Shown here one piece after another: positions 35,508-52,276 of a stretch of 64,000 nucleotides of DNA (positions are counted from its first letter, which is position 1; each line of letters opens with the position of its first letter). Location: contig CBDEVA010000007.1 in the NCBI GenBank assembly GCA_965243505.1, positions 206,188 to 270,187 on the forward strand. The letters run 5' to 3'. Both the position numbers and the translations under genes were made by a program. The notes beneath the pieces are model-generated. The model ran no database searches, was not told the origin of the DNA, and saw only the letters and a list, made by a program, of their open reading frames with translations. This stretch comes from Bacteriovoracaceae bacterium. Its GTDB lineage: Bacteria > Bdellovibrionota > Bacteriovoracia > Bacteriovoracales > Bacteriovoracaceae.

Positions 35508-37712
35508 TTATAATTCTTTGGCATTGAGAACTTTTCTTCTCTTAGATCCTTCAGCAGGGCCTACGATATTTCTTCTCTCTAGCTCTTCGATAAGATTTGC
35601 CGCTCTATTATAACCAATTTTCAAATGCCTCTGTAGCATTGATGCACTAGCTGTTCCATAATCCACAACCAAGCTTACTGCCTTATCATAAAGTTCATCA
35701 TCTGACTGATTACTATTTTCCCAAAAATGAGAAACTTCTCCTGTTCTCTCCTTTTTCTCCTCCATGAACTTAATAGCATCAGGTAAAAATTCTTGGGTAA
35801 TTGTCGATAAATTACGATTTAATGCCTCTACTTCATTCTCCTCAACAAGCGGAGAATGAGCTCTTCTGTTAATTGTTCCATATCTATACAGCATATCGCC
35901 TTTTCCTAGAAGTTTTTCTGCTCCAATATCACTTAAGATAGTTCTAGAATCCGCTCCAGATGTAACCTTAAAGGAAATTCTGGTAGGAAAGTTAGATTTG
36001 ATTAATCCTGTAATAACATCAACCGATGGTCTTTGAGTTGCAATTATCAAATGCATACCTGCGGCCCTAGCTTTAGCTGCCAACCTACAAATATTATTTT
36101 CAACATCTTTTCCACCTCTAGTTAAAATTAAGTCGGCAAATTCATCAATTATTATAATAAAGTAAGGCAGAGAAAAATCCTTAGTTCCTTCGCTATAATA
36201 TGGTCTAATTTTATCTAAAGACTTTTTATCCAATCGACTACACTTTTGATTAAACCCATCTAAACTTCTAACTCCAAATTCTCTAAGTATAGAGTATCTA
36301 CGATCCATTTCTTGACAGGCCCAGCGCAAAGCAATTCCTGCTACACTAGCATCAGTAATAACTGGCAATGCCAAATGTGGTAGATTCTCATATGGCATCA
36401 ACTCTAGTTGTTTGGGGTCAATCAAAATTAATTTCATTTGATTAGGTAGTTTTTTAGCTATCAAAGATATTAAAACAGAGTTTATAAATACTGATTTACC
36501 AGAACCAGTAGTCCCTGCAACTAACATATGGGGCATTGCTGACAAATCAACTACAAAAGAATCTCCAAATACATCTCTACCCATTACAATTGGCAAACGA
36601 TAGGAAGTGTTTTTAAATTCTGTAGAAGATAAAAGCTCTCCTAAACTAATAGTTGTTCTAGGATTTCTAGGTATTTCTATTCCAACTGTAGTTCTTCCAA
36701 TCATAGGATAGACAATACGAATGGCGGTACCTGAAAGAGCAATACTCAATTCATTTTCAGCACTTATAACTTGAGAGATTTTTACTCCACTACCTAGAGC
36801 TAACTCAAAGGTATCAACAACTGGTCCCTTTAATATATTTATAATTTTGCCATCAATCTTAAATTCAGATAATTTTTGCTCTATTATATTTTTTATCTCT
36901 TGAAAATAACTATTCTTTACTTCATTTAGTTTTTCTTTACTTGGCTTATTTAAAGAGCTGTGAACTAAATTATAATACTGCTTATCACTACTAGCTTTTG
37001 AATTTGATTTTCCAATATTTTTAATACTTTTAATCTTCTCTTTTATAGTGGACTCTTTCTTATCTGTAGGTTCTTCTTTATGAGATGAGGCTTTGCCATT
37101 TTCTCCTTTTAGTGCTGACAAAATTTTTAAATGAGAATTTACACTAATTTTATTTTTAACACTAGATACTTTGCTTTTTGTTTTTTGAAATATTGATAAA
37201 GATAATGGATCCTTTACATATCTAAATGAAGCAAAAAATTCTTTAACTACAGTAAAAAAATTACCTCTATATGTTCCAAACAAAAATAAAATCATCGCTA
37301 TAACTCCAAACAGCAGCACAATATTACTAGAAAAATTAGTTTTTATTAAATATAAAATTCCCTCTCCTAGTACATTAGGAGCTAAACAATAAGATAAACA
37401 TAAACAAGCAATAACTAATGCAAAAACATTTAAGGTATCAGTAATAAATAATCTTTTTGAAAAAATAAAAATATAAAATAAGCAAAAAATAGCAAAAGTA
37501 AACAATGTCCATAAACCTGTATAATATTCAACATACATTGCCGCAGAAATAAAATAATAAGAAATAAAACTATAAGATTTATTTGTAGATGTTATTACAA
37601 ATGCATTATCAGGAATCATATCATCTGGATATAAAGACAAAAAAGAAATTATTGTCAAAATAAACAATAAAAATAGCTCTGTTTTTAATACTTTAGATAC
37701 AAAGTTTTGCAT
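35508..37712 (-). CDS. ftsK: DNA translocase FtsK
   Basis: N-terminal membrane helices, Walker A GTTGSGKS, and a C-terminal gamma winged helix SASMLQRHLKIGYNRAANLIEELE. Confidence 0.9.
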   Translation of the reverse strand: MQNFVSKVLKTELFLLFILTIISFLSLYPDDMIPDNAFVITSTNKSYSFISYYFISAAMYVEYYTGLWTLFTFAIFCLFYIFIFSKRLFITDTLNVFALVIACLCLSYCLAPNVLGEGILYLIKTNFSSNIVLLFGVIAMILFLFGTYRGNFFTVVKEFFASFRYVKDPLSLSIFQKTKSKVSSVKNKISVNSHLKILSALKGENGKASSHKEEPTDKKESTIKEKIKSIKNIGKSNSKASSDKQYYNLVHSSLNKPSKEKLNEVKNSYFQEIKNIIEQKLSEFKIDGKIINILKGPVVDTFELALGSGVKISQVISAENELSIALSGTAIRIVYPMIGRTTVGIEIPRNPRTTISLGELLSSTEFKNTSYRLPIVMGRDVFGDSFVVDLSAMPHMLVAGTTGSGKSVFINSVLISLIAKKLPNQMKLILIDPKQLELMPYENLPHLALPVITDASVAGIALRWACQEMDRRYSILREFGVRSLDGFNQKCSRLDKKSLDKIRPYYSEGTKDFSLPYFIIIIDEFADLILTRGGKDVENNICRLAAKARAAGMHLIIATQRPSVDVITGLIKSNFPTRISFKVTSGADSRTILSDIGAEKLLGKGDMLYRYGTINRRAHSPLVEENEVEALNRNLSTITQEFLPDAIKFMEEKKERTGEVSHFWENSNQSDDELYDKAVSLVVDYGTASASMLQRHLKIGYNRAANLIEELERRNIVGPAEGSKRRKVLNAKEL

Positions 37713-38327: not shown

Positions 38328-38804
38328 ATGAAGTGTTATAGCTGTAATATTAAACTACATAAAACTATAGAAAAATTTTATAGATACTTAGAATCTGGAC
38401 TTTCAAACATTTATCTTAAAAATATAGAAATTAAAAAATGCCATAAATGTGGAGAAGAACTAACTTCTATACCCAATATAGAGGGATTACATAATCTTAT
38501 AGCTACAACTATTGCTCATAAAAAATATAAGCTTCTTCCAGAAGAAATAAGATTTTTAAGAACTCATTTAGGATTTTCTTCAAAAGATTTCGCACAGTTT
38601 ATAGGAGTAACTCCAGAGACAGTTACTCGTTGGGAAAAAGGCTCTGTTAATATGAAAGATCCTATTGAAAAGCTATTAAGGGTGTTAATTATTGCAAAAG
38701 CTGGTCCTTTTAGAAATTATGAAGACTTAAATATGTTTTCTAATAAAAAAATTAAACAAAAAAAAGTATTTACTTTTAAATCTAGCTGGAAAGAAGCTGC
38801 TTAA
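38328..38804 (+). CDS. MqsA-family antitoxin (zinc ribbon + XRE HTH)
   Basis: CYSC...CHKCGE zinc ribbon, followed by LRTHLGFSSKDFAQFIGVTPETVTRWEKG HTH. Confidence 0.65.
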   Translation: MKCYSCNIKLHKTIEKFYRYLESGLSNIYLKNIEIKKCHKCGEELTSIPNIEGLHNLIATTIAHKKYKLLPEEIRFLRTHLGFSSKDFAQFIGVTPETVTRWEKGSVNMKDPIEKLLRVLIIAKAGPFRNYEDLNMFSNKKIKQKKVFTFKSSWKEAA

Positions 38805-38866
38805 TTATAGCTTATTAATATGTATCATAATAAAATTTGAAATTCTTCCGCATCCTACTATATATT

Positions 38867-39847
38867 CTATGCAACATCAAAATCATCTAAATCCAAAGAT
38901 ATTATTCTTTGTGAAAATACTTTGTGAAATGCCTCTGCCCTATCATGAAACCACTTAAATAATTCATTCCAAGATAACTTATTTTCAAAATCACCATCAT
39001 TATATTGAATAATACGACTTGCAATTCTATGTGGTAACTCTTCCCATTCAAGTTTTGTCCCTAATTCTGATTCAATAGAGTCTTTTTCTTTTGAAAGTAA
39101 GCTAAAAGCTAATTTAGATTCTGATACTCCTATGTACAGTCCAACACCTACGCACTTTGTTCTAGAGTTTAAAGTTAATGATAGATGAAATCCAGATCTA
39201 CCAACTGAAATATCATACCAATGTTGAGGTCTGGCCTTTCTTAAACTTAAAAATGTATTCTTAGATTTCATAAATTCAATTAAACCTAGCCAAAATTCTC
39301 GCTGAAGCAGTTTAGTATCAGTATATTCTCTTTCACTGAAGTTAGCTGTATTTATGTTTCTTGCCCAATCATTTGGTTGAGATACTAAATTAAACTTTGG
39401 AGCTGGAAAAGAATCGCCAATTTGCCATAATTCCATTTCTAAACCAAAAAAAGAAACTCCATCATTAGTCATTTCATTTAACCAGTCCAATGTTTTTTTA
39501 TGTTCTTCACAAATATTTTTTGCAATCCAAACAACAGCAACGGCATCATATCCAGAAGCATATGTTAGTAATTGTCCTAAGTGGTTATGGTTTGTTTTTT
39601 CTAGCTGATTTTCTATAACAACAAACTTATTAGAATCAGTATCTTTTGCAAGTATATCAACTTTGAAGCTGCCAACTGACCTTTCCCTACCAATTAATTC
39701 AAGATCAATGCGTATTGTCTCACTTAGAAGCTTTAAATTTTCTTCATTTGCTAACCAAGGTGTAAAATCTCTAGCTTCATCTTCCCAGTATTCACGAAGT
39801 TCAACAGGTGCTAAATTTCCAAGCTTTTTTACTTTTCCATTAAACAT
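38867..39847 (-). CDS. DUF4268-like protein with N-terminal PD-(D/E)XK (NucS-like) nuclease fold
   Basis: REYWEDEARDFTPWL, FKVDILAKD...VVIENQLEKTNHNHLGQLLTY. Start at the ATG at 39847, preceded by GGAGA. Confidence 0.5.
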   Translation of the reverse strand: MFNGKVKKLGNLAPVELREYWEDEARDFTPWLANEENLKLLSETIRIDLELIGRERSVGSFKVDILAKDTDSNKFVVIENQLEKTNHNHLGQLLTYASGYDAVAVVWIAKNICEEHKKTLDWLNEMTNDGVSFFGLEMELWQIGDSFPAPKFNLVSQPNDWARNINTANFSEREYTDTKLLQREFWLGLIEFMKSKNTFLSLRKARPQHWYDISVGRSGFHLSLTLNSRTKCVGVGLYIGVSESKLAFSLLSKEKDSIESELGTKLEWEELPHRIASRIIQYNDGDFENKLSWNELFKWFHDRAEAFHKVFSQRIISLDLDDFDVA

Positions 39848-40090
39848 ACTTATCTCCACTAGTAATAATACAATATCGGAATACTCAGACATTTCTTAAA
39901 TGGTATAATAACCAATAATTTCAAATAATTATTTTTTTTAAACACCTAGAACCGCCTATTTCTTATACTAGCATTTTCTTATGTAATAAATATCCAAAAT
40001 TATATAGTTATCCCTATTTAATTTCAGTTAGTTATATTGACATTAGTACAATTTTGCCAGTTAACTGGTAAAATTGTACCATATATAAAT

Positions 40091-41242
40091 ATGATTAAAA
40101 GAGAAGCGTTTAATATATTAAAAACACTAGAAAAAGGATACCCTGTAATATCCATAACTGGCCCTAGGCAGTCTGGGAAAACAACTTTAGCTAAATTAGC
40201 ATTTTCAAACAAGGAGTATGTATCTTTGGAAACTCCGACAAATCTAGATTTTGCCATAAATGATCCCACCTCATTTTTAAAAAAATATCAAAAAGGAGCA
40301 ATTATAGATGAGGCTCAAAAAGCACCTCTTTTGTTCTCATACCTACAAGAGATAGTAGATAAAAGTAAAATTATGGGACAATTTATATTAACAGGTTCAC
40401 AACAATTTGGACTTTTATCAAAAATTACTCAATCACTTGCAGGTAGAGTAGGAAATCTTGAACTATTGCCTTTATCTATTTTAGAGCTAGATACACTCTG
40501 TTCTGATATTTATCAGCAAATATTTACAGGATTTTATCCATCTATTTACGATAGAGAGCTTAACCCTACAATATGGTATGAAGACTATGTAAAAACATAC
40601 TTAGAAAGAGATGTAAAAGAATTAATTAATATTAAAGACTTAAGAACATTTAGAAATTTTTTAAAATTATGCGCTGTAAGAAATGGTCAAATCTTAAATA
40701 TAACAGAGCTTTGTAATGATGCTAATATCAATAGAAAGACTGCTAATTCATGGCTTTCTGTATTAGAACAAAGTTACATTATTCATTTTTTACATCCTTA
40801 CACAAAAAGCTTTTCAAAAAGAATAGTGAAATCTCCCAAACTATATTTTTATGATTCTGGTCTAGTTTCCTATTTATTAGGAATTAGAAGCAGTAAAGAC
40901 ATCTTCTTAAGTCCTTTTAAAGGAGCATTATTTGAATCCATGATTATATCTGAAATGAAAAAATTCAATATGAATCATAGAAAAGCAATAGATTTTTATT
41001 TCTGGAGAGATAATAAAGGTATAGAAATTGATGTAATTTTTGAAACTGCTCAAAAAATTAATTCTATTGAAATAAAATCAAGTTCAACAATACAAAATGA
41101 TTTTTTTAAAAACTTAAAAAGTTATCAAAGTTATGTGGGTAAAGAACATGGAAATTCATTTTTAATTTATGGTGGGGATCAAATTCAAGATAGAAAAATA
41201 GCTAAAGCCATACCCTGGATAAAGATAAGTGAGATTTTTTAA
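40091..41242 (+). CDS. AAA-superfamily ATPase (DUF4143-type)
   Basis: Walker A GPRQSGKTTL, Walker B-like IIDEAQ, C-terminal DUF4143-like region. The ATG at 40091 is preferred over the TTG at 40037. Confidence 0.7.
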   Translation: MIKREAFNILKTLEKGYPVISITGPRQSGKTTLAKLAFSNKEYVSLETPTNLDFAINDPTSFLKKYQKGAIIDEAQKAPLLFSYLQEIVDKSKIMGQFILTGSQQFGLLSKITQSLAGRVGNLELLPLSILELDTLCSDIYQQIFTGFYPSIYDRELNPTIWYEDYVKTYLERDVKELINIKDLRTFRNFLKLCAVRNGQILNITELCNDANINRKTANSWLSVLEQSYIIHFLHPYTKSFSKRIVKSPKLYFYDSGLVSYLLGIRSSKDIFLSPFKGALFESMIISEMKKFNMNHRKAIDFYFWRDNKGIEIDVIFETAQKINSIEIKSSSTIQNDFFKNLKSYQSYVGKEHGNSFLIYGGDQIQDRKIAKAIPWIKISEIF

Positions 41243-41420
41243 TACTATCTAACTTCATAACTACATAGCTATGCATTAAATATAAAATAATACTACTAAA
41301 ATAGATTACTATAATAAAAAACTTTAATCTTATGACTTAAATTTCCGAAAATATAGTATCTGCCTATCTGGGCCTCTAAAGATTTAGGTGGTATTATTAT
41401 AATAATTGGAGTAAATAATC

Positions 41421-41624
41421 ATGTGGGATAAATTTATTAAATATATGAAAGATCAGCTTAATAATAAAGAAAAAGACAGTAGTAAAATCAGTATTATTGA
41501 TTTTATTTTTCGAGGAAAAGGGACCGTCAGAGAACCTTTCATAGACCCTAAAGAAGCGTGGAAAAACAATAAAGATATCAGAGAAAAAATTATTAAAAGC
41601 ATTCAGAAGAAACAAGAATCTTAA
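41421..41624 (+). CDS. small hydrophilic protein, unknown
   Basis: 67-aa ORF ending 9 nt upstream of the next gene. No motif recognised. Confidence 0.3.
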   Translation: MWDKFIKYMKDQLNNKEKDSSKISIIDFIFRGKGTVREPFIDPKEAWKNNKDIREKIIKSIQKKQES

Positions 41625-41633
41625 ATATAGCAC

Positions 41634-42218
41634 ATGGAACTTACTATAAATTCATTGTCATGGGCAGTTCCAGGCTATTTAACTATTTGGTTTTACCATA
41701 ATATAACCAAACCAAAACAAAATACTCGAACTATAAGTAATTGGGAATATTTAATAAGCGTTGTATTTATAGCAATAATTACTAATTGGCTCATTAATAT
41801 TCTTAATATAAACCATATAAATAACTACAAAATACTATATCAATCTATTGCAGGAATATTACTTACATTTCTTTATTCTACACTACTATTTTTACTTCCT
41901 AAAAAACATGAAGATAGCTTTATTAACTTCTGTATTGAAAACGAGGGTAAAGCTATATTTTTAACTTTAAGCAATAATAAAGTATATATTGGAATATTAG
42001 TAGAATTCCCTAAAAATATTCAAAATAAAGATCAAACTATTATGATAATGCCTATTGCGAGTGGATATAGAGGGGAAAAAATAGATGGAGATGTAACATG
42101 GAAGACTAGATATTTACAGAATGATGATAATAAATTTATTCAATTAATTATTCCAAAAAGAGAAATTATTACTATATCTTTATGGATTGATGAAGCTGAA
42201 TTTCAATATATTAGTTAA
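41634..42218 (+). CDS. membrane protein with cytoplasmic C-terminal domain, unknown (DUF6338-like impression)
   Basis: Hydrophobic N-terminal half, about 3 helices (LSWAVPGYLTIWFY...). Beta-rich C-terminal half (AIFLTLSNNKVYIGILVEFP). Confidence 0.4.
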   Translation: MELTINSLSWAVPGYLTIWFYHNITKPKQNTRTISNWEYLISVVFIAIITNWLINILNINHINNYKILYQSIAGILLTFLYSTLLFLLPKKHEDSFINFCIENEGKAIFLTLSNNKVYIGILVEFPKNIQNKDQTIMIMPIASGYRGEKIDGDVTWKTRYLQNDDNKFIQLIIPKREIITISLWIDEAEFQYIS

Positions 42219-42277
42219 ACAACACAAAATAATATTCAAATATTTCACCCATAACTTTTGTAAACTTGGAAAAACAA

Positions 42278-42297
42278 GAGGCTACAAATGTAGCCTC
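42278..42297 (+). terminator. stem-loop, possible intrinsic terminator
   Basis: GAGGCTAC-AAAT-GTAGCCTC, a perfect 8-bp stem 60 nt after the stop at 42218. The T-tract is weak. Confidence 0.4.
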
Positions 42298-42540
42298 GTA
42301 ATCTATCTTAGCAATAATAGATGAGATTATTTACATACTAACTTAAATATTAATTAAACAAAGTAATAAAATAATTTATAATATACAATTTACCCTATGC
42401 ACTCAAAATTACACATATATAAATATATTATGCACTGCAATTTATAAACAATTAATAATTAAAGCAAATCAATATGATATTTTCTAAATATCATGCTAAA
42501 TTACTTTTCTAATAATAAAATCATATTTAGGAGGTAATTA

Positions 42541-43188
42541 ATGAAAATCATCAAAAAACTACTAATAACTAGTTTATTAATTTCTATATTTTCTATTTCA
42601 TCAGCAAATGCCATGGAAAGATACTTAGCTACTTTTACAGCAACATGGAGCAAGATAACTCATCCATATATGTTTCCAGCAAATCCACATTTTTCTCCAC
42701 TTGTAGCAGCAACTCATAATAAAAACTTTATGCTGTTTTATCAGGGATCAAAAGCATCAAGAGGTTTAAAAATTGTCGCTGAAACAGGAAATCCAAGAAC
42801 ACTGGTAAGAGAATTAAATAGTAATCAAAATGTAATGCATGTATCTACAGCAATGGGACCATTTAACTCTCCTGGAATGAGCATGGTTTCACTTTTAGCT
42901 AGTGAAGGAGCAGAATATGTTTCAATGGTTACAATGATCGCTCCTAGTCCTGACTGGATTGCTGGAGTTAGCAGATACAAATTAAAAGACGCAAATAATA
43001 ATTGGATTGATAAAAAAATGATTCCTGTATATGCCATTGATGCTGGAACAGATAGCGGAAGAACTTATACATCTGAAGATCTTCCAACAGTTCCACAAGA
43101 GAGAGTTAAGTTAATAACTCAAAAACCATTTGTAAATGACAATGGTAAAGTAATTCCCGTTGGTTTTATAATAATTAAAAGAATGTAA
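42541..43188 (+). CDS. secreted spondin_N-like domain protein
   Basis: Signal peptide LLITSLLISIFSISSANA. TATWSKITHP...PHFSPLVAATHN...MIAPSPDWIAGVS...DAGTDSG pattern. Confidence 0.55.
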   Translation: MKIIKKLLITSLLISIFSISSANAMERYLATFTATWSKITHPYMFPANPHFSPLVAATHNKNFMLFYQGSKASRGLKIVAETGNPRTLVRELNSNQNVMHVSTAMGPFNSPGMSMVSLLASEGAEYVSMVTMIAPSPDWIAGVSRYKLKDANNNWIDKKMIPVYAIDAGTDSGRTYTSEDLPTVPQERVKLITQKPFVNDNGKVIPVGFIIIKRM

Positions 43189-43266
43189 TTAAATTATGCC
43201 TCTCTTGTGATAAATGAGGGAGGTGTGTTTACATTATATTTGGAATAAAACTATAATTATTAATTT

Positions 43267-44274
43267 TTAATAATTCTTGATAATAAGCTCTGTTAATGCT
43301 CCTCTTTTACTTGAATTAGAATTAATAACTCGCCTAGCATGGATTCTCTCAATATTATATTTAAAATAAAGCTTATCAAAAAATGGGTCATTAATATAAT
43401 TTGAAGGGTCAGAATTACTCATCATTTGCATGATGTTTTCTTTATCAAGATGTTCAAATAATTTTGATAGCCTAATTTGTTCGTCATCATCAAATTGCTC
43501 TTTTGAATAGCTCGTAAAATTAGAACTCTTACTAATTGGCCTATAAGGAGGATCATAATAAATAAAAGTATCTTTTGTTATGCAATGTCTTGCCAAAGAG
43601 AAATCTCCAAGAGCAATTGTAGTATTTTGTAGTAGCTTACTAGCTACTTTTATTTTATCTTCAAATAATATTGTAGGATTAGCATATCTACCATGGGGAA
43701 CATTAAAGTGTCCTTTTGAATTAACCCTAAATAAACCGTTAAAACAAGTTCTATTTAAAAATACTGTTTGTGCAGCTCTTTTAGAAATAACATAATTTCT
43801 CTTTATTTCTTGTAGTACATCTGACAGCGATTGATTATATTGCTCTCTAATTTTATAAAATAAATCTTTTCTTTTACTATCATTAAGAGATAAATATTTA
43901 GATTCTATCTTTGAAAGCTCTTTTATAAGAGCATTAGGGTTTGATTTAATAGTATTATATAAAATAATTAATTCGTGATTTTTATCAAAAAGATAAGAAG
44001 ATTTTATTTTGTATTGATTAGCTATATCAAAAAAAACTGCTCCTCCACCTATAAATGGTTCAATATAAGTTTTAATTTTATTGTTTTTTAACTCTTTAGG
44101 ATAATTTTCCCTTAGCACAGGCAGTAGTTGGCCTTTACCTCCAGCCCATTTTAGTATTGGAATACTTTTTTTCACATTAGACTTTTTGTTGGATGAAATA
44201 GTTTCTTTTAAACCTATTATTGAATAGCTATTGGAGCGATGTCTTTTATCGGGTAATAATGATTTTGTAGTCAT
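43267..44274 (-). CDS. dam: Dam-family (D12 class) N6-adenine DNA methyltransferase
   Basis: KWAGGK, motif I EPFIGGGAVFF, and motif IV YYDPPY, in alpha-class order. Confidence 0.85.
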   Translation of the reverse strand: MTTKSLLPDKRHRSNSYSIIGLKETISSNKKSNVKKSIPILKWAGGKGQLLPVLRENYPKELKNNKIKTYIEPFIGGGAVFFDIANQYKIKSSYLFDKNHELIILYNTIKSNPNALIKELSKIESKYLSLNDSKRKDLFYKIREQYNQSLSDVLQEIKRNYVISKRAAQTVFLNRTCFNGLFRVNSKGHFNVPHGRYANPTILFEDKIKVASKLLQNTTIALGDFSLARHCITKDTFIYYDPPYRPISKSSNFTSYSKEQFDDDEQIRLSKLFEHLDKENIMQMMSNSDPSNYINDPFFDKLYFKYNIERIHARRVINSNSSKRGALTELIIKNY

Positions 44275-44292
44275 AATATTTACTCCTTTCTT

Positions 44293-44910
44293 TTAGTTAA
44301 GCGGAGGTAAAACAGTCTCTAAAAACTTTGTTCTTGCATAAAAAGCACGACTAGTACTTCCATGACCAGTACCTTTAGTTCTAGGCTGAATATACCTACC
44401 CATCTTTCCTGTCAATGAATCAAAACCTTCTTTTTCAATTTTGACACGAACTAATTCATAATCTTCTTTTACTATATTATATGCTTCACCCTCTAATTTT
44501 ACTTCATTAATAGAATGAATATATGTTGGATCTAAAAAAGTTGCTCCAACTGTTCTGGTAACAATTATAATTCTTTTTAGTTTTACCAGAAGATGACTAT
44601 CTTCAAATGGGGTTTTTAATACATTTACTGGATCTATCATAGTTACTGCCATTGTTTCTTTATAAGTCAAAGAACCATCTTTTCGCCATTTCAACGGTAT
44701 GAGTTTTAACTCCCAAGAGCCAAGGTTTGGTTCTCTTGATGAATTAAGAGGTAATCCAAGCTCTCTTTCTAAAATATGTCCTGCCCATCCCTTATTAGCC
44801 TTTCCAGTTTTAGAGTTTACTATAGTTACATCTAGATGATTTTTACCTAATTGATGCAAATCACTTCCAACAAGAGAAGATAGCTTTTCTATAGCTTTAA
44901 CTCTTTCCAT
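44293..44910 (-). CDS. MutH/Sau3AI-family GATC endonuclease-like protein
   Basis: NKGWAGHILERELGL, E-x6-E-L-K (REPNLGSWELK), RYIQPRTKG and RAFYARTKF align by eye with E. coli MutH (KGWIGVLLEIWLG, DFAALGVELK, YLQIRPKA, RGFYLKKNF). Confidence 0.7.
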   Translation of the reverse strand: MERVKAIEKLSSLVGSDLHQLGKNHLDVTIVNSKTGKANKGWAGHILERELGLPLNSSREPNLGSWELKLIPLKWRKDGSLTYKETMAVTMIDPVNVLKTPFEDSHLLVKLKRIIIVTRTVGATFLDPTYIHSINEVKLEGEAYNIVKEDYELVRVKIEKEGFDSLTGKMGRYIQPRTKGTGHGSTSRAFYARTKFLETVLPPLN

Positions 44911-45168
44911 ATTAATAAGAGACTACTAACTATTTAGTTTGGAGTAAAATAGGTATTTCAAATATGAAATAAAGCTGTTGATAACCCACTAAGTCATAGG
45001 ATAATTAAAACAAAATTAAGATGTTACTAATGTAGATTCTACCTATCTTTCAATAAGATATTTAGAAAAGACTCTTTGCATTGTCTATAGATATAAATTA
45101 TTCCTGAAAGAAATATTCTATTTATTGAAACAAAGTTTTATACTACTTATTTCATTAAAGAAAATACA

Positions 45169-46044
45169 ATGATAAACAATAAAAAAACCTTTATTAATAA
45201 ATATAGAATTGATAAGTTTCTATCTATGCTATCAGAAAATATAAACTATGATGAATATCGAAAAAATTTAGAAGAAAAATTAAAAAGTATAATTTTAAAA
45301 CAAAAAAATCTAGAATTAGAAAGATTTTTTGAAGATACTTTTTATTTTTTTTCATATAGTGTTGACTCTCTATTAAAAAATGTTGATGAAGATCAAAAAC
45401 AGATACTAACATGGATATCTTCTGCTATTATTCAAATTCACGATATATTAAGAAGCACTAAAATAAATCAAGAGCTTCTTCTCCTCACATCATCTGTCTC
45501 AAACTATAGGATATCAATTGAAATTGAATTTCAGCTAAAATATATTTTTAAAAATGAAAAATCTCAAGAACTAGCAGAGAGATTTTATTTATTCGGTATG
45601 TATGAACAACTTAGACATCATAATAAAAAGCTAAAAGAAAATCCTAACTATAAATGCCCTAATACTTTCAAATCAGACGAAACAGCTAAAATATTATACA
45701 AAAAATGTCCTGATTGGTTTGATAATTCTAAAATCATTAAATTAAAAAATATTAAAAATTTTTTGAACAAACCAATAGAAAAAATAGCAAGATTTATAGG
45801 AGAAGATGAGTATAAAGAATATTTAACTTACAAAAGTTTATCTAAAATTATTCATGCGTCATCAATAAGCCAAAACATTTATAAAGATAATTTAGTTAAT
45901 AGCTCAGAAAACATCACTATGTTTAATAAGAATACAGTATACCATTGTTTAAGTATAATTAAAATTATCTACAGCCAATTTTCATCTAAAAACTTTGATG
46001 AGGAAAGATATTGCAACCTAATAAGTAGAATTATAAAAGTCTAA
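45169..46044 (+). CDS. all-helical protein, unknown function
   Basis: 291-aa ORF with no recognised catalytic motif. Convergent with the retron RT. Confidence 0.35.
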   Translation: MINNKKTFINKYRIDKFLSMLSENINYDEYRKNLEEKLKSIILKQKNLELERFFEDTFYFFSYSVDSLLKNVDEDQKQILTWISSAIIQIHDILRSTKINQELLLLTSSVSNYRISIEIEFQLKYIFKNEKSQELAERFYLFGMYEQLRHHNKKLKENPNYKCPNTFKSDETAKILYKKCPDWFDNSKIIKLKNIKNFLNKPIEKIARFIGEDEYKEYLTYKSLSKIIHASSISQNIYKDNLVNSSENITMFNKNTVYHCLSIIKIIYSQFSSKNFDEERYCNLISRIIKV

Positions 46045-46076
46045 ACAAACCACTATTAAAATTATTAATAACATTA

Positions 46077-47765
46077 CTAATTGTATATTCGTAGTTTGTA
46101 ATCGTCTATAACTTCCTGTATTATATAGATAAGATACTTAAAGTTATCAAAGTTGATCTTTTCCCAATTAGGCTTAATAACTTTTTCTGCAAATACTTGT
46201 TTACCATAATATTTGTTACTATCAAATTTGCTGTCCGGATTAAAGGTTTTTCCTTCTAAAACAGTTTTTTTTGTTTTTTCATCAAAATAGGTTTCAATTG
46301 TAGTACTATTTTCATTTGATAATTTTGGAAGCAACACAAAATATACATTGTCAAATAGATATAAAAATTTTTCTTTCGTTTTATTATTATTAATATTTTT
46401 ACTGAACATTTTTTCTCCTTCTTTATCGTTATCTAACAACATAATAACTGGAAACTTTCTATCTTTATCGGATGTTTTTATTTTAACTTCTTTATATGTA
46501 TTAATTATGTGATTAAATCCTGAAACTCCTCCCGGATGTAATACTGCTAACATTGATGAAGACATATTAAAAAAATTTAATTTCCAATAAAAGTCATCGT
46601 ATTCTCTTCTTTCAACTATTTTAGGAAAATTATTAGCTAAGTTTTTTAATGCACTTTTTATATGAATAACATCTGTCTTTCCCTCACATATTATCAAAGG
46701 CCTTTCTATTCTATGAAATTTTTCAAAACATATAAATTTTTTAATTACCTTACATATACCTTTAGAATATTTTTTCCCAGAACTTCTTTTTACATGGTAT
46801 ATGTAACTCAACATACCTCTAAGCTGTTCTATATATCCATATATAGGTGTTATCTTTGACCTTTGAGAGATTTCACAAAAATCTCTCTTGTTACCAATAA
46901 TGAAATATCCTTTCTTAAGCAAAGAGTCACTCATTGCTCTAACCTTTCTATAGTATGCACTAGGAATATTTACTTTTTTGTTTACAACTAAACCTGTAAC
47001 TTTTTGCCGATTTACACGATACTGCATTGATACTTTTCTAGGGTTTATTTCAAATCCAGAAAACTCAATAATCTTAAATAAGTCTAGACTAGGTTTCCAA
47101 GTATGATGTTCTCTAGTTGCAATTTCCTTAGGAAATTCTTTTTTATTTGTTGAAAAAGTTATATCATCTGCATATCTAGAGTATGAACAACCTGTCTTTT
47201 TAGCCAATCGCAAAAGATGAATATCTAATATATGTCCTATAAGATTTGAAATAATTGGTGAACTTGGAGAACCTTGTGGTAATTCATTATTATGACATAC
47301 AATTTGAGCAATAATAGTCGCAACTCTATCATTAAGACTAAAATTTCTATCGTTTATAAAGTAACCTCTAACTCTTCCAAAGTTAATTGATGGGAAAAAA
47401 TCTTTTAAATCTATATTAAAAACATATTGTTTTTTAAGATGCATTTGAGCATTTGTAATTATTGAATACTTTTTTCTAAATCCATGTGAAAGAGTGTTTC
47501 TAAAAAGCTCTTCAAAACAATCTTCCATTAGCTCCGATACTCTAGACTGCAAATGTTTTAGTTTTTCTTGTGGAGCTTTTATTATCCTAAATTGACCATT
47601 AGATTTTAAAATATTAAATTCAGTATATTTTTCATTTTCAGGAATTTTATAGAGGATATAAGACATACCACTAGGAGTATATCCAAGTAAACTAGCAAGA
47701 TCGCCAAGGCTTCTAGATAATCTAAGTTTTTGAATTTTATCCTGAACAATTGTAGTAGATTTCAT
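46077..47765 (-). CDS. retron-type reverse transcriptase fused to a C-terminal TOPRIM domain
   Basis: LPQGSPSSP, YADD (aa 198-201), retron-typical VTG (aa 256-258). TOPRIM Glu in IICEGKTD (aa 361) and DxD in LLDNDKEG (aa 445-447). Confidence 0.85.
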   Translation of the reverse strand: MKSTTIVQDKIQKLRLSRSLGDLASLLGYTPSGMSYILYKIPENEKYTEFNILKSNGQFRIIKAPQEKLKHLQSRVSELMEDCFEELFRNTLSHGFRKKYSIITNAQMHLKKQYVFNIDLKDFFPSINFGRVRGYFINDRNFSLNDRVATIIAQIVCHNNELPQGSPSSPIISNLIGHILDIHLLRLAKKTGCSYSRYADDITFSTNKKEFPKEIATREHHTWKPSLDLFKIIEFSGFEINPRKVSMQYRVNRQKVTGLVVNKKVNIPSAYYRKVRAMSDSLLKKGYFIIGNKRDFCEISQRSKITPIYGYIEQLRGMLSYIYHVKRSSGKKYSKGICKVIKKFICFEKFHRIERPLIICEGKTDVIHIKSALKNLANNFPKIVERREYDDFYWKLNFFNMSSSMLAVLHPGGVSGFNHIINTYKEVKIKTSDKDRKFPVIMLLDNDKEGEKMFSKNINNNKTKEKFLYLFDNVYFVLLPKLSNENSTTIETYFDEKTKKTVLEGKTFNPDSKFDSNKYYGKQVFAEKVIKPNWEKINFDNFKYLIYIIQEVIDDYKLRIYN

Positions 47766-47778
47766 GTTAATTATAAAA

Positions 47779-47789
47779 GCTTGCAGATA
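47779..47789 (-). repeat. a2 inverted repeat (TATCTGCAAGC on minus strand)
   Basis: Exact reverse complement of 47906-47916. Confidence 0.7.
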
Positions 47790-47905
47790 CTCCTATGCGA
47801 AAAGCCTTACCATTGAGACGGTAATAAAAGATTCAAAGCGTATAAACCAGCACAAAACTCGGTTTAACATTGGTTTCCCATGTTGAGAAGCTCAACAATA
47901 AAATC

Positions 47906-47916
47906 TATCTGCAAGC
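47906..47916 (-). repeat. a1 inverted repeat (GCTTGCAGATA on minus strand)
   Basis: Exact reverse complement of 47779-47789. Confidence 0.7.
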
Positions 47917-48127
47917 AAGTTCTTACTATCACTACTATTATATAATTGCAATTATAAGTAACATAGAATGGCTATATGCATATAACATAAATTATGTCTA
48001 ATATAATCAAGGATAAAATTATTTGTAATATATAAATATGTCCATTAAATAAAAAAATGTTGCTAGCAAATTCAAAATAAAATTTTTAATTATATAGAAT
48101 TTAAATTTACGACTAAATCAATAATAA

Positions 48128-48718
48128 TTATTTTACAACTTCAGGAAAAACTCCCAATATAAGCACTGGTATATCTATATTAGAAGTCCCTCTTTTTTCT
48201 AAATCCCAAACAAATTGCTCAAAGTACGATACGCCTGAAGACATATTATCAGCCATTCCCTTAACAGGAACGACTTCTATTCCTGCACTAATAACGCCAA
48301 GATTGCTAAAAATAGTCATTTTTGCACATACATTGTAAACCATAAAAGCATACTTACCAAATTGAATTTCTACTCCTAATTTGTTTTTTACAAAATCCAT
48401 ATCTCTAAAAGCCCCACTGTTTAAAGGTTTAGGAGAATATTCATTTGTGTAGTAATTAGTTGGATAATCACATTTTTCTCTATGAGATACCCATCCTTTT
48501 TTAAAAAAGCCATTTTTGAATTTATCATTTAAGGAAGCAGGACTATACAGAAGCTTTCCTTTCATAGTCTTTTCCTTACTGACTTTATCAAAGCATTTTG
48601 ATGCATCTACATAATTGATAACATTATAAACTTCTGCTAGTTGGTCAGGAAAGTTTTTAGTTATATAATCCTTTCCATTATTTAAACTATATTCAGCGGC
48701 AATAATCATTAAATCCAT
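48128..48718 (-). CDS. BglII/BstYI-family type II restriction endonuclease-like protein
   Basis: DMDFVKNKLGVEIQFGKYAF and MSSGVSYFEQ...IDIPVLILGV resemble, from memory, BglII DIDFGKRDTLVEVQFSNYPF and SSLYYEQ...FDVPIRLVGL. Overlaps the MTase gene by 10 nt. Confidence 0.6.
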   Translation of the reverse strand: MDLMIIAAEYSLNNGKDYITKNFPDQLAEVYNVINYVDASKCFDKVSKEKTMKGKLLYSPASLNDKFKNGFFKKGWVSHREKCDYPTNYYTNEYSPKPLNSGAFRDMDFVKNKLGVEIQFGKYAFMVYNVCAKMTIFSNLGVISAGIEVVPVKGMADNMSSGVSYFEQFVWDLEKRGTSNIDIPVLILGVFPEVVK

Positions 48719-49647
48719 TCCTTAGGAATCTGAGAAACCTTTTCCTTGCCACTAGGAACATGAATTGGTTTTCCTAATGGACGAATTTTTAAGTTTCCAG
48801 AACAAAAATTTTTAATACGCTCTCTAGCAATCTTTGAATAATTAGAATCCTTATCCACAGAAATTCCTATTCTATCGTGTTTAACAGAAGCAATTAATGT
48901 TGATCCAACTCCTCCAAAAGGATCAAGAACCCAGTCATTTTTATCAGTAAAAGCCAAAACACAACGCTCTATAAGCTCTATAGGAAATTGACATGGGTGA
49001 ATTGTTTTTTCTGGGTGGTTAGACTTTACATTAGGAATATCAATAACTCCTAAATCAAATTCATTTTGCATTAACTCCCAATAATCTGAGGGATTTTTTC
49101 CTTTAGGATTTCCACTTAAAAGTCCTTTTTTGTTTCCTTTAAAATGTCTTTTTCCAGGATATTTTGATGGAACTCTAATATTATCAAGATTGAATGTATA
49201 ATCATCTGATTTAGTAAACCATAATAAAGTTTCATATCTTCCTGATAAACGCTTGCTAGCATGAAGACCATGGTTAAAATGCCAAATTATTCTGTTTCGT
49301 AATTTCAAATTTAACTTTTTAAATATTGGATAGAAAAAGATATCCAAAGGGAAAACCTCTCCTTTATCAACAAAGTTTCCAACTTGCCAACAAAAACTTC
49401 CTTTGGGATGTAATAGACTTGCTAGTTTAGAAATAATTTCTTCTTGCCAACATATATAGGTATCTAAATCCTGTTTTTTTTCATAAACTTTTCCAATATT
49501 ATAAGGAGGTGATGAAATAATTAACTTAAAAAAATTCTTTGGAAGTTCTTTTGAAAACTTTAAAATATCTTTCGTAATTATAGCACTATTTTTTTTATTA
49601 AACTCACTACAAACAGTTAACTTCTTTTCAAAAATATTTAATTGCAT
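48709..49647 (-). CDS. beta-class N4-cytosine/N6-adenine DNA methyltransferase (SPPY type)
   Basis: Motif IV IISSPPY near the N-terminus and motif I VLDPFGGVGST near the C-terminus. SPPY favours N4-cytosine. Confidence 0.85.
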   Translation of the reverse strand: MQLNIFEKKLTVCSEFNKKNSAIITKDILKFSKELPKNFFKLIISSPPYNIGKVYEKKQDLDTYICWQEEIISKLASLLHPKGSFCWQVGNFVDKGEVFPLDIFFYPIFKKLNLKLRNRIIWHFNHGLHASKRLSGRYETLLWFTKSDDYTFNLDNIRVPSKYPGKRHFKGNKKGLLSGNPKGKNPSDYWELMQNEFDLGVIDIPNVKSNHPEKTIHPCQFPIELIERCVLAFTDKNDWVLDPFGGVGSTLIASVKHDRIGISVDKDSNYSKIARERIKNFCSGNLKIRPLGKPIHVPSGKEKVSQIPKEWI

Positions 49648-49994
49648 CTTATCCCTCTTTATTTTTTAATCATATTAATTACAATTTTTACTTAATTTAT
49701 ATATTAATCAGTATTTTGAGCAGCACCCTTTCCACATAATCCCAAGAAAAAATGATATTGCAAATATGAAATTCAAAAATGATGTAATACTAAAAAATAA
49801 ATGACTTATGCCAAATTAAAAGGTTTATTTTGCGGTGTCCAAAAAGTTAATTTACACAACAGTTGACTTCTACAATAAAACTACTTAACTAGTAATCTAA
49901 AGATATGCTGTCTAATTAACTGGAAGTTATTGTCTTAGTAATTAAGATAATAACCAGTAGCTTAAGATAAATAAATTAGGAAATAGGGTAAAAA

Positions 49995-50978
49995 ATGAAA
50001 ATAAGTAAAATACAAAAGATACAAAAGTTTAAATTTATAAGTATGATTAGTAAAAGGCTTATTGAAATGGGTCGTATTGAAGCAGAAACTTTCATTCAAG
50101 TTTATACTAATTTTGAAAAAACTGAAGAAAATTATAATTACTTAGACAACTATAATTATGGAGAACAAATTATAGAGCTTGTCAGAACATTGAGTGAACA
50201 AACTATTATTGAAATGTATACCGACTTATTTCCAGAAGAATCAAAAAAAGATATCCAAGAATATCCTAATGTTGAGGAGTTAGATTTGGGAAGAAAAGAT
50301 TTAGTATTATTTTTAAGTCATTCTCATAAAGATGTAGATATGGTTATGAAAATAAAGGAGCAATTAGAAAAAACATCTTGGATTTACTGTTTTGTAGCTC
50401 ATAAAGATATTGAACCAACAAAAAAGTGGCTAGAGGAAATTAACAAATACTTGAGAGGTTGTCATGCATTCGTTCCGTTTCTTTCAGAAAACTTTAAAAA
50501 GTCTAATTGGTGTGAACAAGAAGTAGGCTTTGCTGAAAGTAGAAATATTCCTGTAATTCCAATAAAAATAAATGTTAATCCTTATGGTTTTATACAAGAG
50601 TATCAAGCTTTGTCATTAGAGAAAGGTGATTCTTATGTAGATTTAGCTGAAAAAATTGAAAGTGTTATTTTGAACAAAGATTCTATACTATCAAGTATAG
50701 CACAAGAAAAAATGAAGCAAGGTTTGGATAATTTAAAAAGAGGATTTCTCTATTCTACTAACAAAACGGTTGCAAAAACTATATTAGGACAACTTCTTTC
50801 TTTTAAAAAAGGACAAATCCCAGAAAGCTACATCGCTGAAATTAATGAAAGATGGAGGCAAAACCACAAAATCAAAGAAATAGAAAATATAAACAGCTTT
50901 ATGGAAAAATTCTCTGGAAAATATATCCTTAAAAAAGATAAAATCAATAGATTAATAGAAAACAAACCCATGCAATAA
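49995..50978 (+). CDS. TIR-domain protein
   Basis: aa ~103-195: LVLFLSHSHKDVDMVMKIKEQL...CFVAHKDIEP...AFVPFLSENFKKSNWCEQEVGFA, a TIR_2-like pattern with a conserved Glu. Helical N- and C-terminal extensions are unassigned. Confidence 0.7.
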   Translation: MKISKIQKIQKFKFISMISKRLIEMGRIEAETFIQVYTNFEKTEENYNYLDNYNYGEQIIELVRTLSEQTIIEMYTDLFPEESKKDIQEYPNVEELDLGRKDLVLFLSHSHKDVDMVMKIKEQLEKTSWIYCFVAHKDIEPTKKWLEEINKYLRGCHAFVPFLSENFKKSNWCEQEVGFAESRNIPVIPIKINVNPYGFIQEYQALSLEKGDSYVDLAEKIESVILNKDSILSSIAQEKMKQGLDNLKRGFLYSTNKTVAKTILGQLLSFKKGQIPESYIAEINERWRQNHKIKEIENINSFMEKFSGKYILKKDKINRLIENKPMQ

Positions 50979-51060
50979 AATGGTTATAATCTTACAAAAA
51001 GTAATGAATAGTATTAGATTATCCTTTAGATGTTGTTAGCCTTAGTTGTTGTATGTAATG

Positions 51061-51135
51061 GTGGAGATGACAAGATTCGAACTTGCGACCCCCTGCGTGC
51101 AAAGCAGGTGCTCTCCCAACTGAGCTACACCCCCA
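51061..51135 (-). tRNA. tRNA-Ala (anticodon UGC)
   Basis: Reverse complement GGGGGTGTAGCTCAGTGGGAGAGCACCTGCTTTGCACGCAGGGGGTCGCAAGTTCGAATCTTGTCATCTCCACCA folds as a cloverleaf. Anticodon loop TTTGCAC, G3:U70 pair, encoded CCA. Confidence 0.92.
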
Positions 51136-51595: not shown

Positions 51596-52276
51596 TTAAA
51601 TCCTCTTAATGTCTGATTGATAATGCTTTTTATTTACAAGTAATCCTACATCAATCATTAATTTATTAACACTTTCTTTATCAAGTGAATAATACCCTCG
51701 AACATCTCCATCATAATCAACTAGAACAATTTTTTGAGAATGGGCAATATCAATAATATCATCACTATTTTTAGTTTTATCTCCCATGGCAACTCTAAAG
51801 CCATTGTTTAAAAGATTTTTTATCTCTTTAATATCTCCAGTTAAGAATGTCCAAATGTAGGGATTTGCCCCAGCATCTCTGGCATATTTGAATAAAACCT
51901 CAGGAGTATCATTTGTCGGATCAACGCTGAAGCTAACAAGAGCTATCTTATCACCTAGCCCTCGAACTCTCTTTTGAATTTTTTTCATATCAGCGGTAAT
52001 TTTAGGACACACAGAAGGACAAGATGTGAAGATAAATGATGCTAAATAAACTCGACCTTTTAAATTAGAACTACCAAAGAATTTATTATTTTCATTAACT
52101 AATTTAAATTCAGGAATTTTAAAATATTTCGCAGGAGGATTGGGCAGCTCTCTATTGATTGATCTAATTAAAGGGTAGGAAAATAATAAAATTAAAGATA
52201 TGGTCCAAAACCATGGGTTTCTAACAATCCTTTCAATAAAAAATTCTTTTCTAATATATATACTTTTGGTTGCCAT
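51596..52276 (-). CDS. SCO-family copper chaperone / thioredoxin-like protein
   Basis: FIFTSCPSVCP (CxxxCP) motif. N-terminal anchor. Confidence 0.8.
   Translation of the reverse strand: MATKSIYIRKEFFIERIVRNPWFWTISLILLFSYPLIRSINRELPNPPAKYFKIPEFKLVNENNKFFGSSNLKGRVYLASFIFTSCPSVCPKITADMKKIQKRVRGLGDKIALVSFSVDPTNDTPEVLFKYARDAGANPYIWTFLTGDIKEIKNLLNNGFRVAMGDKTKNSDDIIDIAHSQKIVLVDYDGDVRGYYSLDKESVNKLMIDVGLLVNKKHYQSDIKRI

Follow-up and report, generated by a model that had tools for sequence, protein, structure and literature searches.

A probable type I-C (Ec67/Eco2-family) retron in an AT-rich Bacteriovoracaceae bacterium

Does a reverse transcriptase (RT) gene with a fused TOPRIM domain, preceded by a short non-coding region between inverted repeats, make up a genuine retron in a bacterium far from the enterobacterial models, and is it expected to work as its E. 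coli relative does? The question was raised by a locus on the minus strand of the window, the whole 64,000-nt stretch of Bacteriovoracaceae DNA that was analysed here. The locus was first described from the sequence letters, and every sequence feature of that original prediction was present as described. In this study, we compared the protein and the RNA of the locus with known systems. The locus is very probably an intact type I-C (Ec67/Eco2-family) retron, composed of an ncRNA gene and an RT-TOPRIM fusion gene, with an anti-phage function assigned from its homologue. The system is already known; the retron is a correct call in an unusual AT-rich host, is no new kind of system, and leaves current understanding unchallenged.

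The RT-TOPRIM fusion protein

The gene and its domains were assigned as follows.

46077-47765, minus strand: RT-TOPRIM fusion gene of the Ec67 family, 562 aa plus stop, ATG start (ORF listing, NCBIfam, PADLOC, and PDB matches)
46989-47612, minus strand: reverse transcriptase domain, aa 52-259 (Pfam RVT_1, E 2.6e-21)
46080-46697, minus strand: C-terminal TOPRIM effector domain, aa 357-562 (Pfam Toprim over aa 357-458, 27.5 bits, cut-off 23.1)

The protein matched the NCBIfam model NF038237 (retron_Ec67_fus) with 639.2 bits (cut-off 450) over aa 12-556 of 562. With PADLOC, the model RT-Toprim_I-C scored 658 bits (E 3.1e-198), and the next-best models, RT-TIR_XII and RT-Protease_XI, scored 376 and 348 bits, respectively. 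The Retron Ec67 protein of the PDB (9lm3/9i2f) was aligned with aa 9-560 (E 5.8e-103).

The RT motifs are NAQMH (105-109), LPQGSPSSP (162-170), YADD (198-201), and VTG (256-258). NAxxH (region X) and VTG (region Y) are the retron-specific RT motifs (PMC7736814). N105, A106, H109, Y198, D200, D201, T257, and G258 were invariant when 30 homologues were aligned. In the C-terminal part, E361 lies in IICEGKTD (358-365), EGKTD spans 361-365, and DND (445-447) lies in LLDNDKEG. The RT and TOPRIM motif positions given earlier for the 562-aa ORF were all exact. The C-terminus had also been read as TOPRIM, and this reading was borne out by a Pfam Toprim score above the gathering score and by the retention of EGxxD and DxD.

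The signature of type I-C consists of the TOPRIM motif IV EGxxD and the motif V DxD (I-C1, I-C3) or DxE (I-C2) (Mestre et al., 2020). The type I-C label of the original prediction is correct according to this classification. The DxD in motif V of the window protein rules out I-C2. The best PADLOC model pair for the protein, 02966/02963, is also the pair for authentic Eco2 (I-C1), and these models carry no subtype labels. With Eco2 as the labelled reference, I-C1 is tentatively the more likely of the two remaining subtypes.

Alignment to the Eco2 structure chain placed E361, D365, D445, D447, T489, and E491 opposite Eco2 E374, D378, D460, D462, S513, and E515, respectively. Replacement of these Eco2 residues with alanine abolished defence (PMC12405507), and the six window residues are the predicted metal ligands of the TOPRIM domain. 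E361, D365, D445, D447, and E491 were invariant in the alignment of 30 homologues. The catalytic K562 of Eco2 (PMC12405507) could not be placed in the alignment: residue 562 of the deposited chain counts as D, and the nearby K560 lies opposite K536 of the window protein.

The template RNA

The non-coding region upstream of the RT gene was analysed with a covariance model (R1) that was built from 45 homologous loci, with the window left out, and has a length of 133. The following features were assigned.

47779-47916, minus strand: retron ncRNA (msr-msd), a1 to a2, 138 nt (covariance model R1 and RNA fold)
47906-47916, minus strand: a1 inverted repeat GCTTGCAGATA, perfect complement of 47779-47789
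47779-47789, minus strand: a2 inverted repeat TATCTGCAAGC, separated from the RT ATG by 13 nt (inverted-repeat search)
47905, minus strand: predicted branching (priming) guanosine; this G and the next A are invariant in 45/45 aligned homologues
47881-47897, minus strand: msr hairpin TGTTGAG-CTT-CTCAACA, 7-bp stem and 3-nt loop, aligned to the family hairpin in R1
47867-47877, minus strand: conserved single-stranded msr motif GAAACCAAUGU, within which the predicted RT stop lies (family consensus UGAAAacAAUGU)
47791-47868, minus strand: predicted msd template, by alignment with Eco2
47790-47799, minus strand: conserved motif CGCAUAGGAG next to a2, at which the predicted reverse-transcribed template would begin (matches the family consensus CGCnUAAGAG)

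The perfect repeats, the 138-nt length, the 13-nt gap, the G at 47905, and the hairpin had all been reported beforehand, and each was found again. The repeats form a perfect 11-nt pair with 116 nt between the arms. An 11-nt inverted repeat by itself is weak evidence in DNA of 27.5% GC, and a second perfect 11-mer inverted pair is present nearby. The region is nevertheless far beyond chance, because R1, a model independent of the window, matched 47916-47779 (minus strand) over its full length (model positions 1-133) with 86.9 bits and an E value of 1.2e-18. This was the sole real match in 64 kb; a match at 51782-51905 (11 bits, E 0.54) had a broken stem and was rejected as chance. In E. coli, R1 also recovered the authentic ncRNA of Ec67 with 69.4 bits and a homologue on a plasmid with 65.6 bits. 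In the non-training loci with enough flank, an ncRNA was found directly upstream of the RT in 32 of 32 (27-98 bits), with two matches cut by the contig end, and the score of the window ncRNA falls mid-range for the family. The MFE fold of the window RNA closes a1/a2 (z = -2.9 versus shuffles). In Rfam, scans at E values up to 10 and at gathering thresholds returned no retron RNA family for the window ncRNA and only two chance matches upstream of a1.

The repeats and the adjacent G had been expected to be conserved in homologous loci, and they were. Perfect inverted repeats of 8 nt or longer, with GA[TCG]T following, occurred in 47 of 63 homologous loci and in 0 of 189 control regions. The stem sequences differ among the homologous loci and their complementarity is kept, and the distance from a2 to the start codon is mostly 5-31 nt in homologues with the canonical repeat. 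A MAFFT alignment of the 45 sequences, chosen without regard to the msr hairpin, shows covariation at five stem pairs of the hairpin, from GC to AU in 12-22 sequences.

The Eco2 ncRNA was used as the reference. The sequence taken for it matched at 100% beside genes of the Ec67 family in 14 genomes of E. coli, and its numbering agrees with the papers for G15, G20-U42, U51/G52, dT1, and dC67. With both RNAs aligned to R1, G47905 aligns with Eco2 G15, at which a 2',5' bond has been seen by cryo-EM (PMC12405507), and this alignment makes G47905 the predicted priming guanosine. The window hairpin corresponds to the Eco2 RNA stem-loop G20-U42 (PMC12405507). In Eco2, U51 is flipped out and reverse transcription ends at the pair G52:dC67 (PMC12916289), and the RT of the window retron would stop at the equivalent U47869/G47868. 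The predicted msDNA is the 78-nt plus-strand sequence from 47791 to 47868, 5'-TCCTATGCG...GGTTTAAC-3'; these limits were chosen because Eco2 dT1 faces the A preceding 'G + a2' and the stop is G52. The GAG of CGCnUAAGAG is invariant in 45/45 homologues, and Eco2 carries GCGAAGGAG at the equivalent place. A search for an intramolecular msDNA hairpin gave DNA folds no better than shuffles (z = -0.6 for the window, z = 0.05 for Eco2 msDNA); hence, no msDNA structure is claimed.

The family ncRNA consensus reads a1, G-AUUU, a 7-bp hairpin, GAAAcAAUGU, a variable msd, CGCAUA(A/G)GAG, and a2. It was present upstream of every Ec67-family RT examined with enough flank, from E. coli to the window host, and this family-wide consensus may be more useful than the locus itself. 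Since no Rfam family matched the window ncRNA, a covariance model of this kind would allow automatic annotation of I-C ncRNAs.

Genomic context and relatives

The window has a GC content of 27.5%, and the retron lies in a chromosomal defence island between two complete type II R-M systems. It had been ranked as the defence system with the best support in the window, a position that it does not hold alone given these two flanking systems. The placement in an AT-rich lineage far from enterobacteria was right: ValS is ~60% identical to Halobacteriovorax/Bacteriovoracaceae. Downstream, the adjacent ORF (45169-46044) lies on the other strand and is convergent to the retron gene. The same-strand upstream ORFs (48128-49647) encode a BglII-like REase and an MTase, a complete and self-contained type II pair. 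This arrangement, with a convergent gene downstream and a complete R-M pair upstream on the same strand, fits the single-gene I-C architecture; judged by this gene order, the locus is a retron without need for an accessory gene. The original prediction of a self-contained retron therefore stands as to the accessory gene, but co-oriented genes do exist directly upstream, namely the R-M pair, whose genes are no accessories of the retron.

The reference system is Retron-Eco2 (Ec67, E. coli, type I-C1; 9LM3, 9I2F, 9I2G, 9S1F). It shares with the window retron a single RT-TOPRIM fusion that can be aligned end to end (the PDB match of E 5.8e-103 above), YADD, the TOPRIM metal ligands, the lack of an accessory gene, and an ncRNA directly upstream. 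The two ncRNAs follow a common plan of a1, G + AUUU, one 7-bp msr hairpin, the AAUG stop, a variable msd, (A/G)GAG, and a2. The proteins are only ~37% identical. Eco2 has 586 aa whereas the window protein has 562 aa, with a deletion of ~11 residues at the Eco2 trimer contact, and Eco2 S513 is replaced by T489. The Eco2 msDNA is 67 nt in length, compared with 78 nt predicted here, and the msd sequences are unrelated. Eco2 resides in a P2-like prophage, in contrast to the defence island of the 27.5% GC Bacteriovoracaceae host.

The closest relatives are Ec67-family retrons from metagenomes and MAGs (P0002-P0120; loci L004-L083), with 45-50% identity and 97-98% coverage. Their ncRNAs have the same plan and nearly identical motifs (GAUUUU, GAAAcAAUGU, and CGCAUAGGAG), and the a1 of locus L045, GGACTTGCAGATA, contains the last nine a1 bases of the window. 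Most of these ncRNAs are GC-richer (0.40-0.59 versus 0.39 for the window). A search of 5.8 billion proteins gave no relative of the window protein above ~50% identity, and single-protein scans of genome contigs and viral contigs gave only 35-42% relatives. The practical value of this cleanly delimited, AT-rich, and divergent I-C retron (~37% identity to Eco2 and at most 50% to anything public) is limited. It could help in judging how widely the Eco2 mechanism holds, or retron engineering could use it as another scaffold.

Proposed mechanism and alternative readings

The ncRNA and the RT would be co-transcribed. The a1 and a2 arms, a structure supported by comparison, would pair and present G47905. 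On the alignment with Eco2, the RT would prime on the 2'-OH of G47905, copy the msd from A47791 toward the 5' end, and halt at G47868 within the AAUG motif to yield an RNA-linked msDNA of ~78 nt. The later steps are carried over from the caging and msDNA-degradation mechanism of Eco2 (PMC12916289; PMC12405507). By this homology, the protein would be kept inactive by the msDNA, within a nucleoprotein assembly in which the TOPRIM active site is caged, and a phage DNA endonuclease would degrade the msDNA in infection. The freed TOPRIM would then act as a metal-dependent RNase on tRNAs, so that translation and phage growth stop. The fused TOPRIM nuclease had been proposed as the effector; the domain was confirmed, but in the Eco2 homologue it acts as an RNase, nicking the acceptor stems of tRNAs, and not as a DNase (PMC12916289; PMC12405507).

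The retron may instead be a genuine msDNA-making I-C retron that works unlike Eco2, with another oligomer, another trigger (ssDNA-binding protein, methylase), or a DNA target. We consider this unlikely but a serious contender. In the Eco2 trimer, the protein chains touch one another only at residues 325-347 (PMC12916289), and this region is shortened in the window protein, in which the ~11 residues opposite Eco2 residues ~321-331 are deleted. Because the deletion overlaps the sole trimer contact region, the oligomeric state is not confidently transferable from Eco2. The predicted msDNA also differs in length (78 nt versus 67 nt) and is unrelated in sequence. As to the trigger, the DenB or A1 of coliphages may lack a counterpart in the phages of this host, and Eco2 itself is also triggered by phage families without DenB or A1, as its authors point out. 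A DNA target would agree with the related OLD and Gabija proteins, whose TOPRIM cuts DNA. However, conservation with Eco2 extends to the catalytic residues and to the alignment of the whole domain, and the window ncRNA retains each of the conserved parts that contact the RT in Eco2 (the G context, the hairpin, and the AAUG stop motif). In particular, this deep-branching retron of a lineage of predatory bacteria might assemble or be triggered unlike Eco2, for example with no 3:3 caged trimer or with non-DenB/A1 sensing, since it has the ~11-residue deletion and an AU-rich hairpin and would make a longer msDNA (~78 nt) of unrelated sequence; we rate this as rather doubtful.

An intact I-C retron is preferred, and an inactive relic, either not expressed or no longer making msDNA, is very improbable. 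The exact protein is a database singleton from one contig, and no promoter could be called. However, the promoter and terminator scan (18 promoter-like sites versus 16.5 expected, no terminators) is uninformative in AT-rich DNA of 27% GC. Furthermore, the frame of 562 codons has no interruption, none of the invariant catalytic and retron residues is missing, and the ncRNA combines a mid-family score with a perfect a1/a2 stem of 11 bp.

Another RT class (group II intron maturase, Abi, or DRT/UG) beside a chance inverted repeat, which Pfam alone (generic RVT_1) and the missing Rfam match would allow, is extremely improbable and was refuted by PADLOC, NCBIfam, the Eco2 alignment, and the ncRNA model: TIGR04416 (group II intron) scored 61.7 against a cut-off of 300 and Drt2 34.3 against 390, compared with 639 against 450 for the Ec67 model, NAxxH and VTG are present, and the ncRNA family model gave E 1e-18. 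The RT is of the retron kind, as had been claimed.

The next most similar RT domains are those of type XII (RT-TIR) and type XI (RT-protease), as ranked by the PADLOC scores above, and types I-C, XII, and XI all belong to RT clade 8 (Mestre et al., 2020). Types XII and XI have a C-terminal TIR or protease, whereas the C-terminus here is a TOPRIM. A type XII or XI identity was rejected: Pfam found no TIR or protease, and the NCBIfam model Retron_TIR covered the RT part only (aa 20-341; 309 versus a cut-off of 600). Type I-B (Eco8) and the OLD-family nucleases share with the window protein the TOPRIM fold and its metal site of Glu plus DxD, but their TOPRIM is carried by a distinct ATPase-TOPRIM protein, and it cleaves DNA. 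The TOPRIM domains of type I-C make up a lineage of their own (Mestre et al., 2020).

The RT-TOPRIM protein

The minus-strand ORF at 46077..47765 encodes a protein of 562 aa. The RT and TOPRIM motifs named in the original prediction were found exactly where it placed them: LPQGSPSSP (aa 162-170), YADD (198-201), VTG (256-258), E361 in IICEGKTD, and D445/D447 in LLDNDKEG. The retron-type NAxxH motif is also present, as NAQMH (105-109). In Pfam, RVT_1 was matched at aa 52-259 (E 2.6e-21) and Toprim at aa 357-458 (27.5 bits; cut-off, 23.1), which bears out the proposed C-terminal TOPRIM domain. The curated NCBIfam model NF038237, 'retron Ec67 family RNA-directed DNA polymerase/endonuclease', covers aa 12-556 with 639 bits (cut-off, 450). 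Two other NCBIfam assignments, group II intron RT (61.7 against a cut-off of 300) and Drt2 (34 against 390), were rejected. The RT-Toprim_I-C models of PADLOC matched the full length (E 3.1e-198); the next-best PADLOC classes, RT-TIR_XII (376 bits) and RT-Protease_XI (348 bits), chiefly covered the RT part.

The top solved-structure match was the Retron Ec67 protein (9LM3; 9I2F/9I2G/9S1F; E 5.8e-103), with residues 9-560 aligned to residues 5-584 of Ec67 (Retron-Eco2, hereafter Eco2), the characterised type I-C1 reference of E. coli. The residues essential in Eco2, E374, D378, D460, D462, S513, and E515 (PMC12405507), align with E361, D365, D445, D447, T489, and E491; apart from T489, these show no variation across 30 close homologues. 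Type I-C comprises RTs fused to TOPRIM, with EGxxD in motif IV and DxD (I-C1, I-C3) or DxE (I-C2) in motif V (Mestre et al., 2020). The protein carries EGKTD and DND; hence, it belongs to type I-C but not to I-C2, and the I-C label of the original prediction was correct. The two PADLOC sub-models that fit the window protein best are also those preferred by authentic Eco2 (I-C1), which suggests, short of proof, that the retron is of subtype I-C1.

The ncRNA upstream of the RT gene

The predicted layout of the locus was reproduced in full. A perfect 11-nt inverted repeat, GCTTGCAGATA (a1, 47916-47906) and TATCTGCAAGC (a2, 47789-47779), lies on the minus strand upstream of the RT gene with 116 nt between the arms, a G at 47905, a hairpin at 47897-47881 (7-bp stem, 3-nt loop), and 13 nt from a2 to the RT ATG. 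Folding of 47930-47766 closed a1/a2 (-44.1 kcal/mol, z = -2.9). Another perfect 11-mer inverted pair was found nearby in the window; such repeats are not rare in this 27.5% GC DNA, so the repeat alone is little proof. Because the nearest relatives of the RT are only ~50% identical at the protein level, architecture was compared instead of sequence.

Of the 83 loci sampled, all encoding Ec67-family RTs, 63 had 260 nt or more of upstream DNA. In 47 of these 63, the stretch before the start codon contains a perfect inverted repeat of 8 nt or longer whose arms lie 90-130 nt apart and whose a1 is followed by GA[TCG]T; 189 control regions of the same size, taken from inside RT genes, contained no such repeat. 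The window is typical of these loci (an 11-nt a1 with GATTTT after it, a 116-nt gap, and the ATG 13 nt from a2). When 45 distinct ncRNAs were aligned with MAFFT, a1 was always followed by G-A; next came a hairpin, the consensus UGAAAacAAUGU, and a variable middle part, with CGCnUA(A/G)GAG abutting a2. The msr hairpin, which played no part in sequence selection, shows covariation, with GC exchanged for AU at five pairs (12-22 of the 45 sequences); the covariation of a1/a2 is partly circular, as the sequences were picked by their repeat.

R1, a covariance model of the 45 sequences with the window excluded, gave a single window match at 47916-47779 (-), covering all 133 model positions (86.9 bits, E 1.2e-18). 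Among non-training loci with enough upstream DNA, R1 placed an ncRNA immediately upstream of the RT in 32 of 32 (27-98 bits; two matches truncated by the contig end), and it did likewise in two loci from enterobacteria and on an E. coli plasmid. One simple model catches the ncRNA upstream of every examined, sufficiently flanked Ec67-family RT, from E. coli to the window host. The Ec67 msr-msd reference sequence was verified against genomes: 14 E. coli genomes carry it with 100% identity beside genes labelled 'retron Ec67 family', inside a P2-like prophage. Numbered along this sequence, the published G15, stem-loop G20-U42, U51/G52, and 67-nt msDNA (dT1 to dC67) are all recovered. The reference scores 69.4 bits with R1. 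Since R1 matches both RNAs, the window ncRNA is a homologue of the Ec67 ncRNA that has been characterised by experiment. No Rfam 15 family matched the retron ncRNA in 47600-48200.

At the E. coli locus NZ_CP027440.1 (2490-4430), RefSeq gives the authentic Ec67 RT 646 aa with a start at 2490, and the msr-msd ncRNA (2504-2630) falls entirely within the annotated CDS. As the solved Ec67 construct has 596 aa, the RefSeq start probably lies too far upstream.

Predicted msDNA and comparison with Eco2

When both RNAs were aligned to R1, G47905 fell opposite Eco2 G15, which primes with its 2'-OH and whose 2',5' bond cryo-EM has revealed (PMC12405507). U47869/G47868 aligned with U51/G52, the point at which reverse transcription ends in Eco2 (PMC12916289), and A47791, the base before 'G + a2', with the Eco2 base templating dT1. 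From these three correspondences, an msDNA of 78 nt is predicted, + strand 47791 to 47868. Its DNA fold was no better than that of shuffles (z = -0.6), as was the case for Eco2 msDNA (z = 0.05); both fit the published absence from Eco2 msDNA of the long hairpin once assumed (PMC12916289). The near-invariant (A/G)GAG before a2 (47790-47794, minus strand, and homologous loci) resembles a Shine-Dalgarno sequence, 24 nt from the ATG in the window and 16-42 nt in most relatives; by the predicted template, it would also be the first stretch reverse transcribed.

Protein and RNA both belong to the Ec67 family, with catalytic and recognition elements all intact. The original observation is confirmed and its interpretation as a retron supported. 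By homology to Eco2 (PMC12916289, PMC12405507), msDNA synthesis would be primed at G47905, and an msDNA-dependent assembly would cage the TOPRIM domain. The system would be activated when a phage endonuclease acting on DNA (for Eco2, DenB or A1) degrades the msDNA, and TOPRIM would nick tRNA acceptor stems, causing translational arrest. The proposed effector, a TOPRIM nuclease, stands as to the domain and is to be corrected in that the homologous Eco2 TOPRIM is an RNase acting on tRNA. The window retron is a divergent addition to a known, mechanistically characterised kind. Caution in carrying the Eco2 mechanism over to it is called for by the protein identity of ~37%, by a deletion of ~11 residues in the region of Eco2 325-347, the sole protein-protein contact of the Eco2 trimer, and by an msd that is longer than, and unrelated to, that of Eco2.

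The defence island and its host

The retron lies inside a ~13-kb defence island (38328-51134) between ftsK and tRNA-Ala plus a cytochrome oxidase operon.

Features flanking the retron
35508-37712, ftsK, island border
38328-38804, MqsA-like HTH protein
38867-39892, DUF4268 protein
40037-41242, PDC-S01 AAA_14/DUF4143 ATPase
41634-42218 (+), ORF, 194 aa; no match in Pfam, NCBIfam or PADLOC
42541-43188 (+), Spondin_N-domain protein, 215 aa (PF06468 E 6e-44)
43267-44274 (-), Dam-class (D12) adenine methyltransferase (TIGR00571, 270 bits)
44293-44910 (-), MutH/Sau3AI-like endonuclease, 205 aa, adjoining the Dam-class methyltransferase
45169-46044 (+), ORF, 291 aa, convergent with the RT gene, with 33 nt between its end and the RT stop codon; unmatched in Pfam, NCBIfam and PADLOC
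48128-48718 (-), BglII-like restriction endonuclease (PF09195 E 1.7e-19; PADLOC REase_II E 2.5e-34)
48709-49647 (-), N6/N4 DNA methyltransferase (PF01555 E 1.3e-48), overlapping the BglII-like gene
49995-50978 (+), TIR-domain protein, 327 aa (TIR_2 E 5e-18)
51059-51134, tRNA-Ala, starting 80 nt past the TIR gene end
From 51309, cytochrome oxidase operon, island border

Directly upstream of the retron on its strand, 48128-49647 (-) is a complete, self-contained type II R-M pair; a second pair, 43267-44910 (-), is probably GATC-specific. As the downstream ORF is convergent and the upstream genes are an R-M pair, the retron is a single-gene system, in keeping with the definition of type I-C. The statement that no co-oriented accessory gene exists holds in part: co-oriented genes do lie upstream, and they constitute an R-M system. 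The retron had also been ranked as the best-supported defence system in the window, which was not upheld, the flanking R-M systems being equally well supported.

The TIR protein resembles ThsB weakly, as it does the TIR part of type XII (RT-TIR) retron proteins; no partner of the ThsA kind was seen beside it. Spondin_N is a domain known chiefly from extracellular-matrix proteins of animals. The scanned ORFs of the island yielded no integrase, and there is no clear GC shift across it.

Genes for ValS, FtsK, aa3 oxidase, and kynureninase are present in the window. ValS (17165-19828, +) is ~60% identical to sequences of Halobacteriovorax (the best named matches including H. marinus), Bacteriovorax, and Bacteriovoracaceae MAGs, so the host is a divergent Bacteriovoracaceae-like bacterium, far from enterobacteria. 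The host is probably an undescribed lineage of predatory-type Bdellovibrionota with 27.5% GC.
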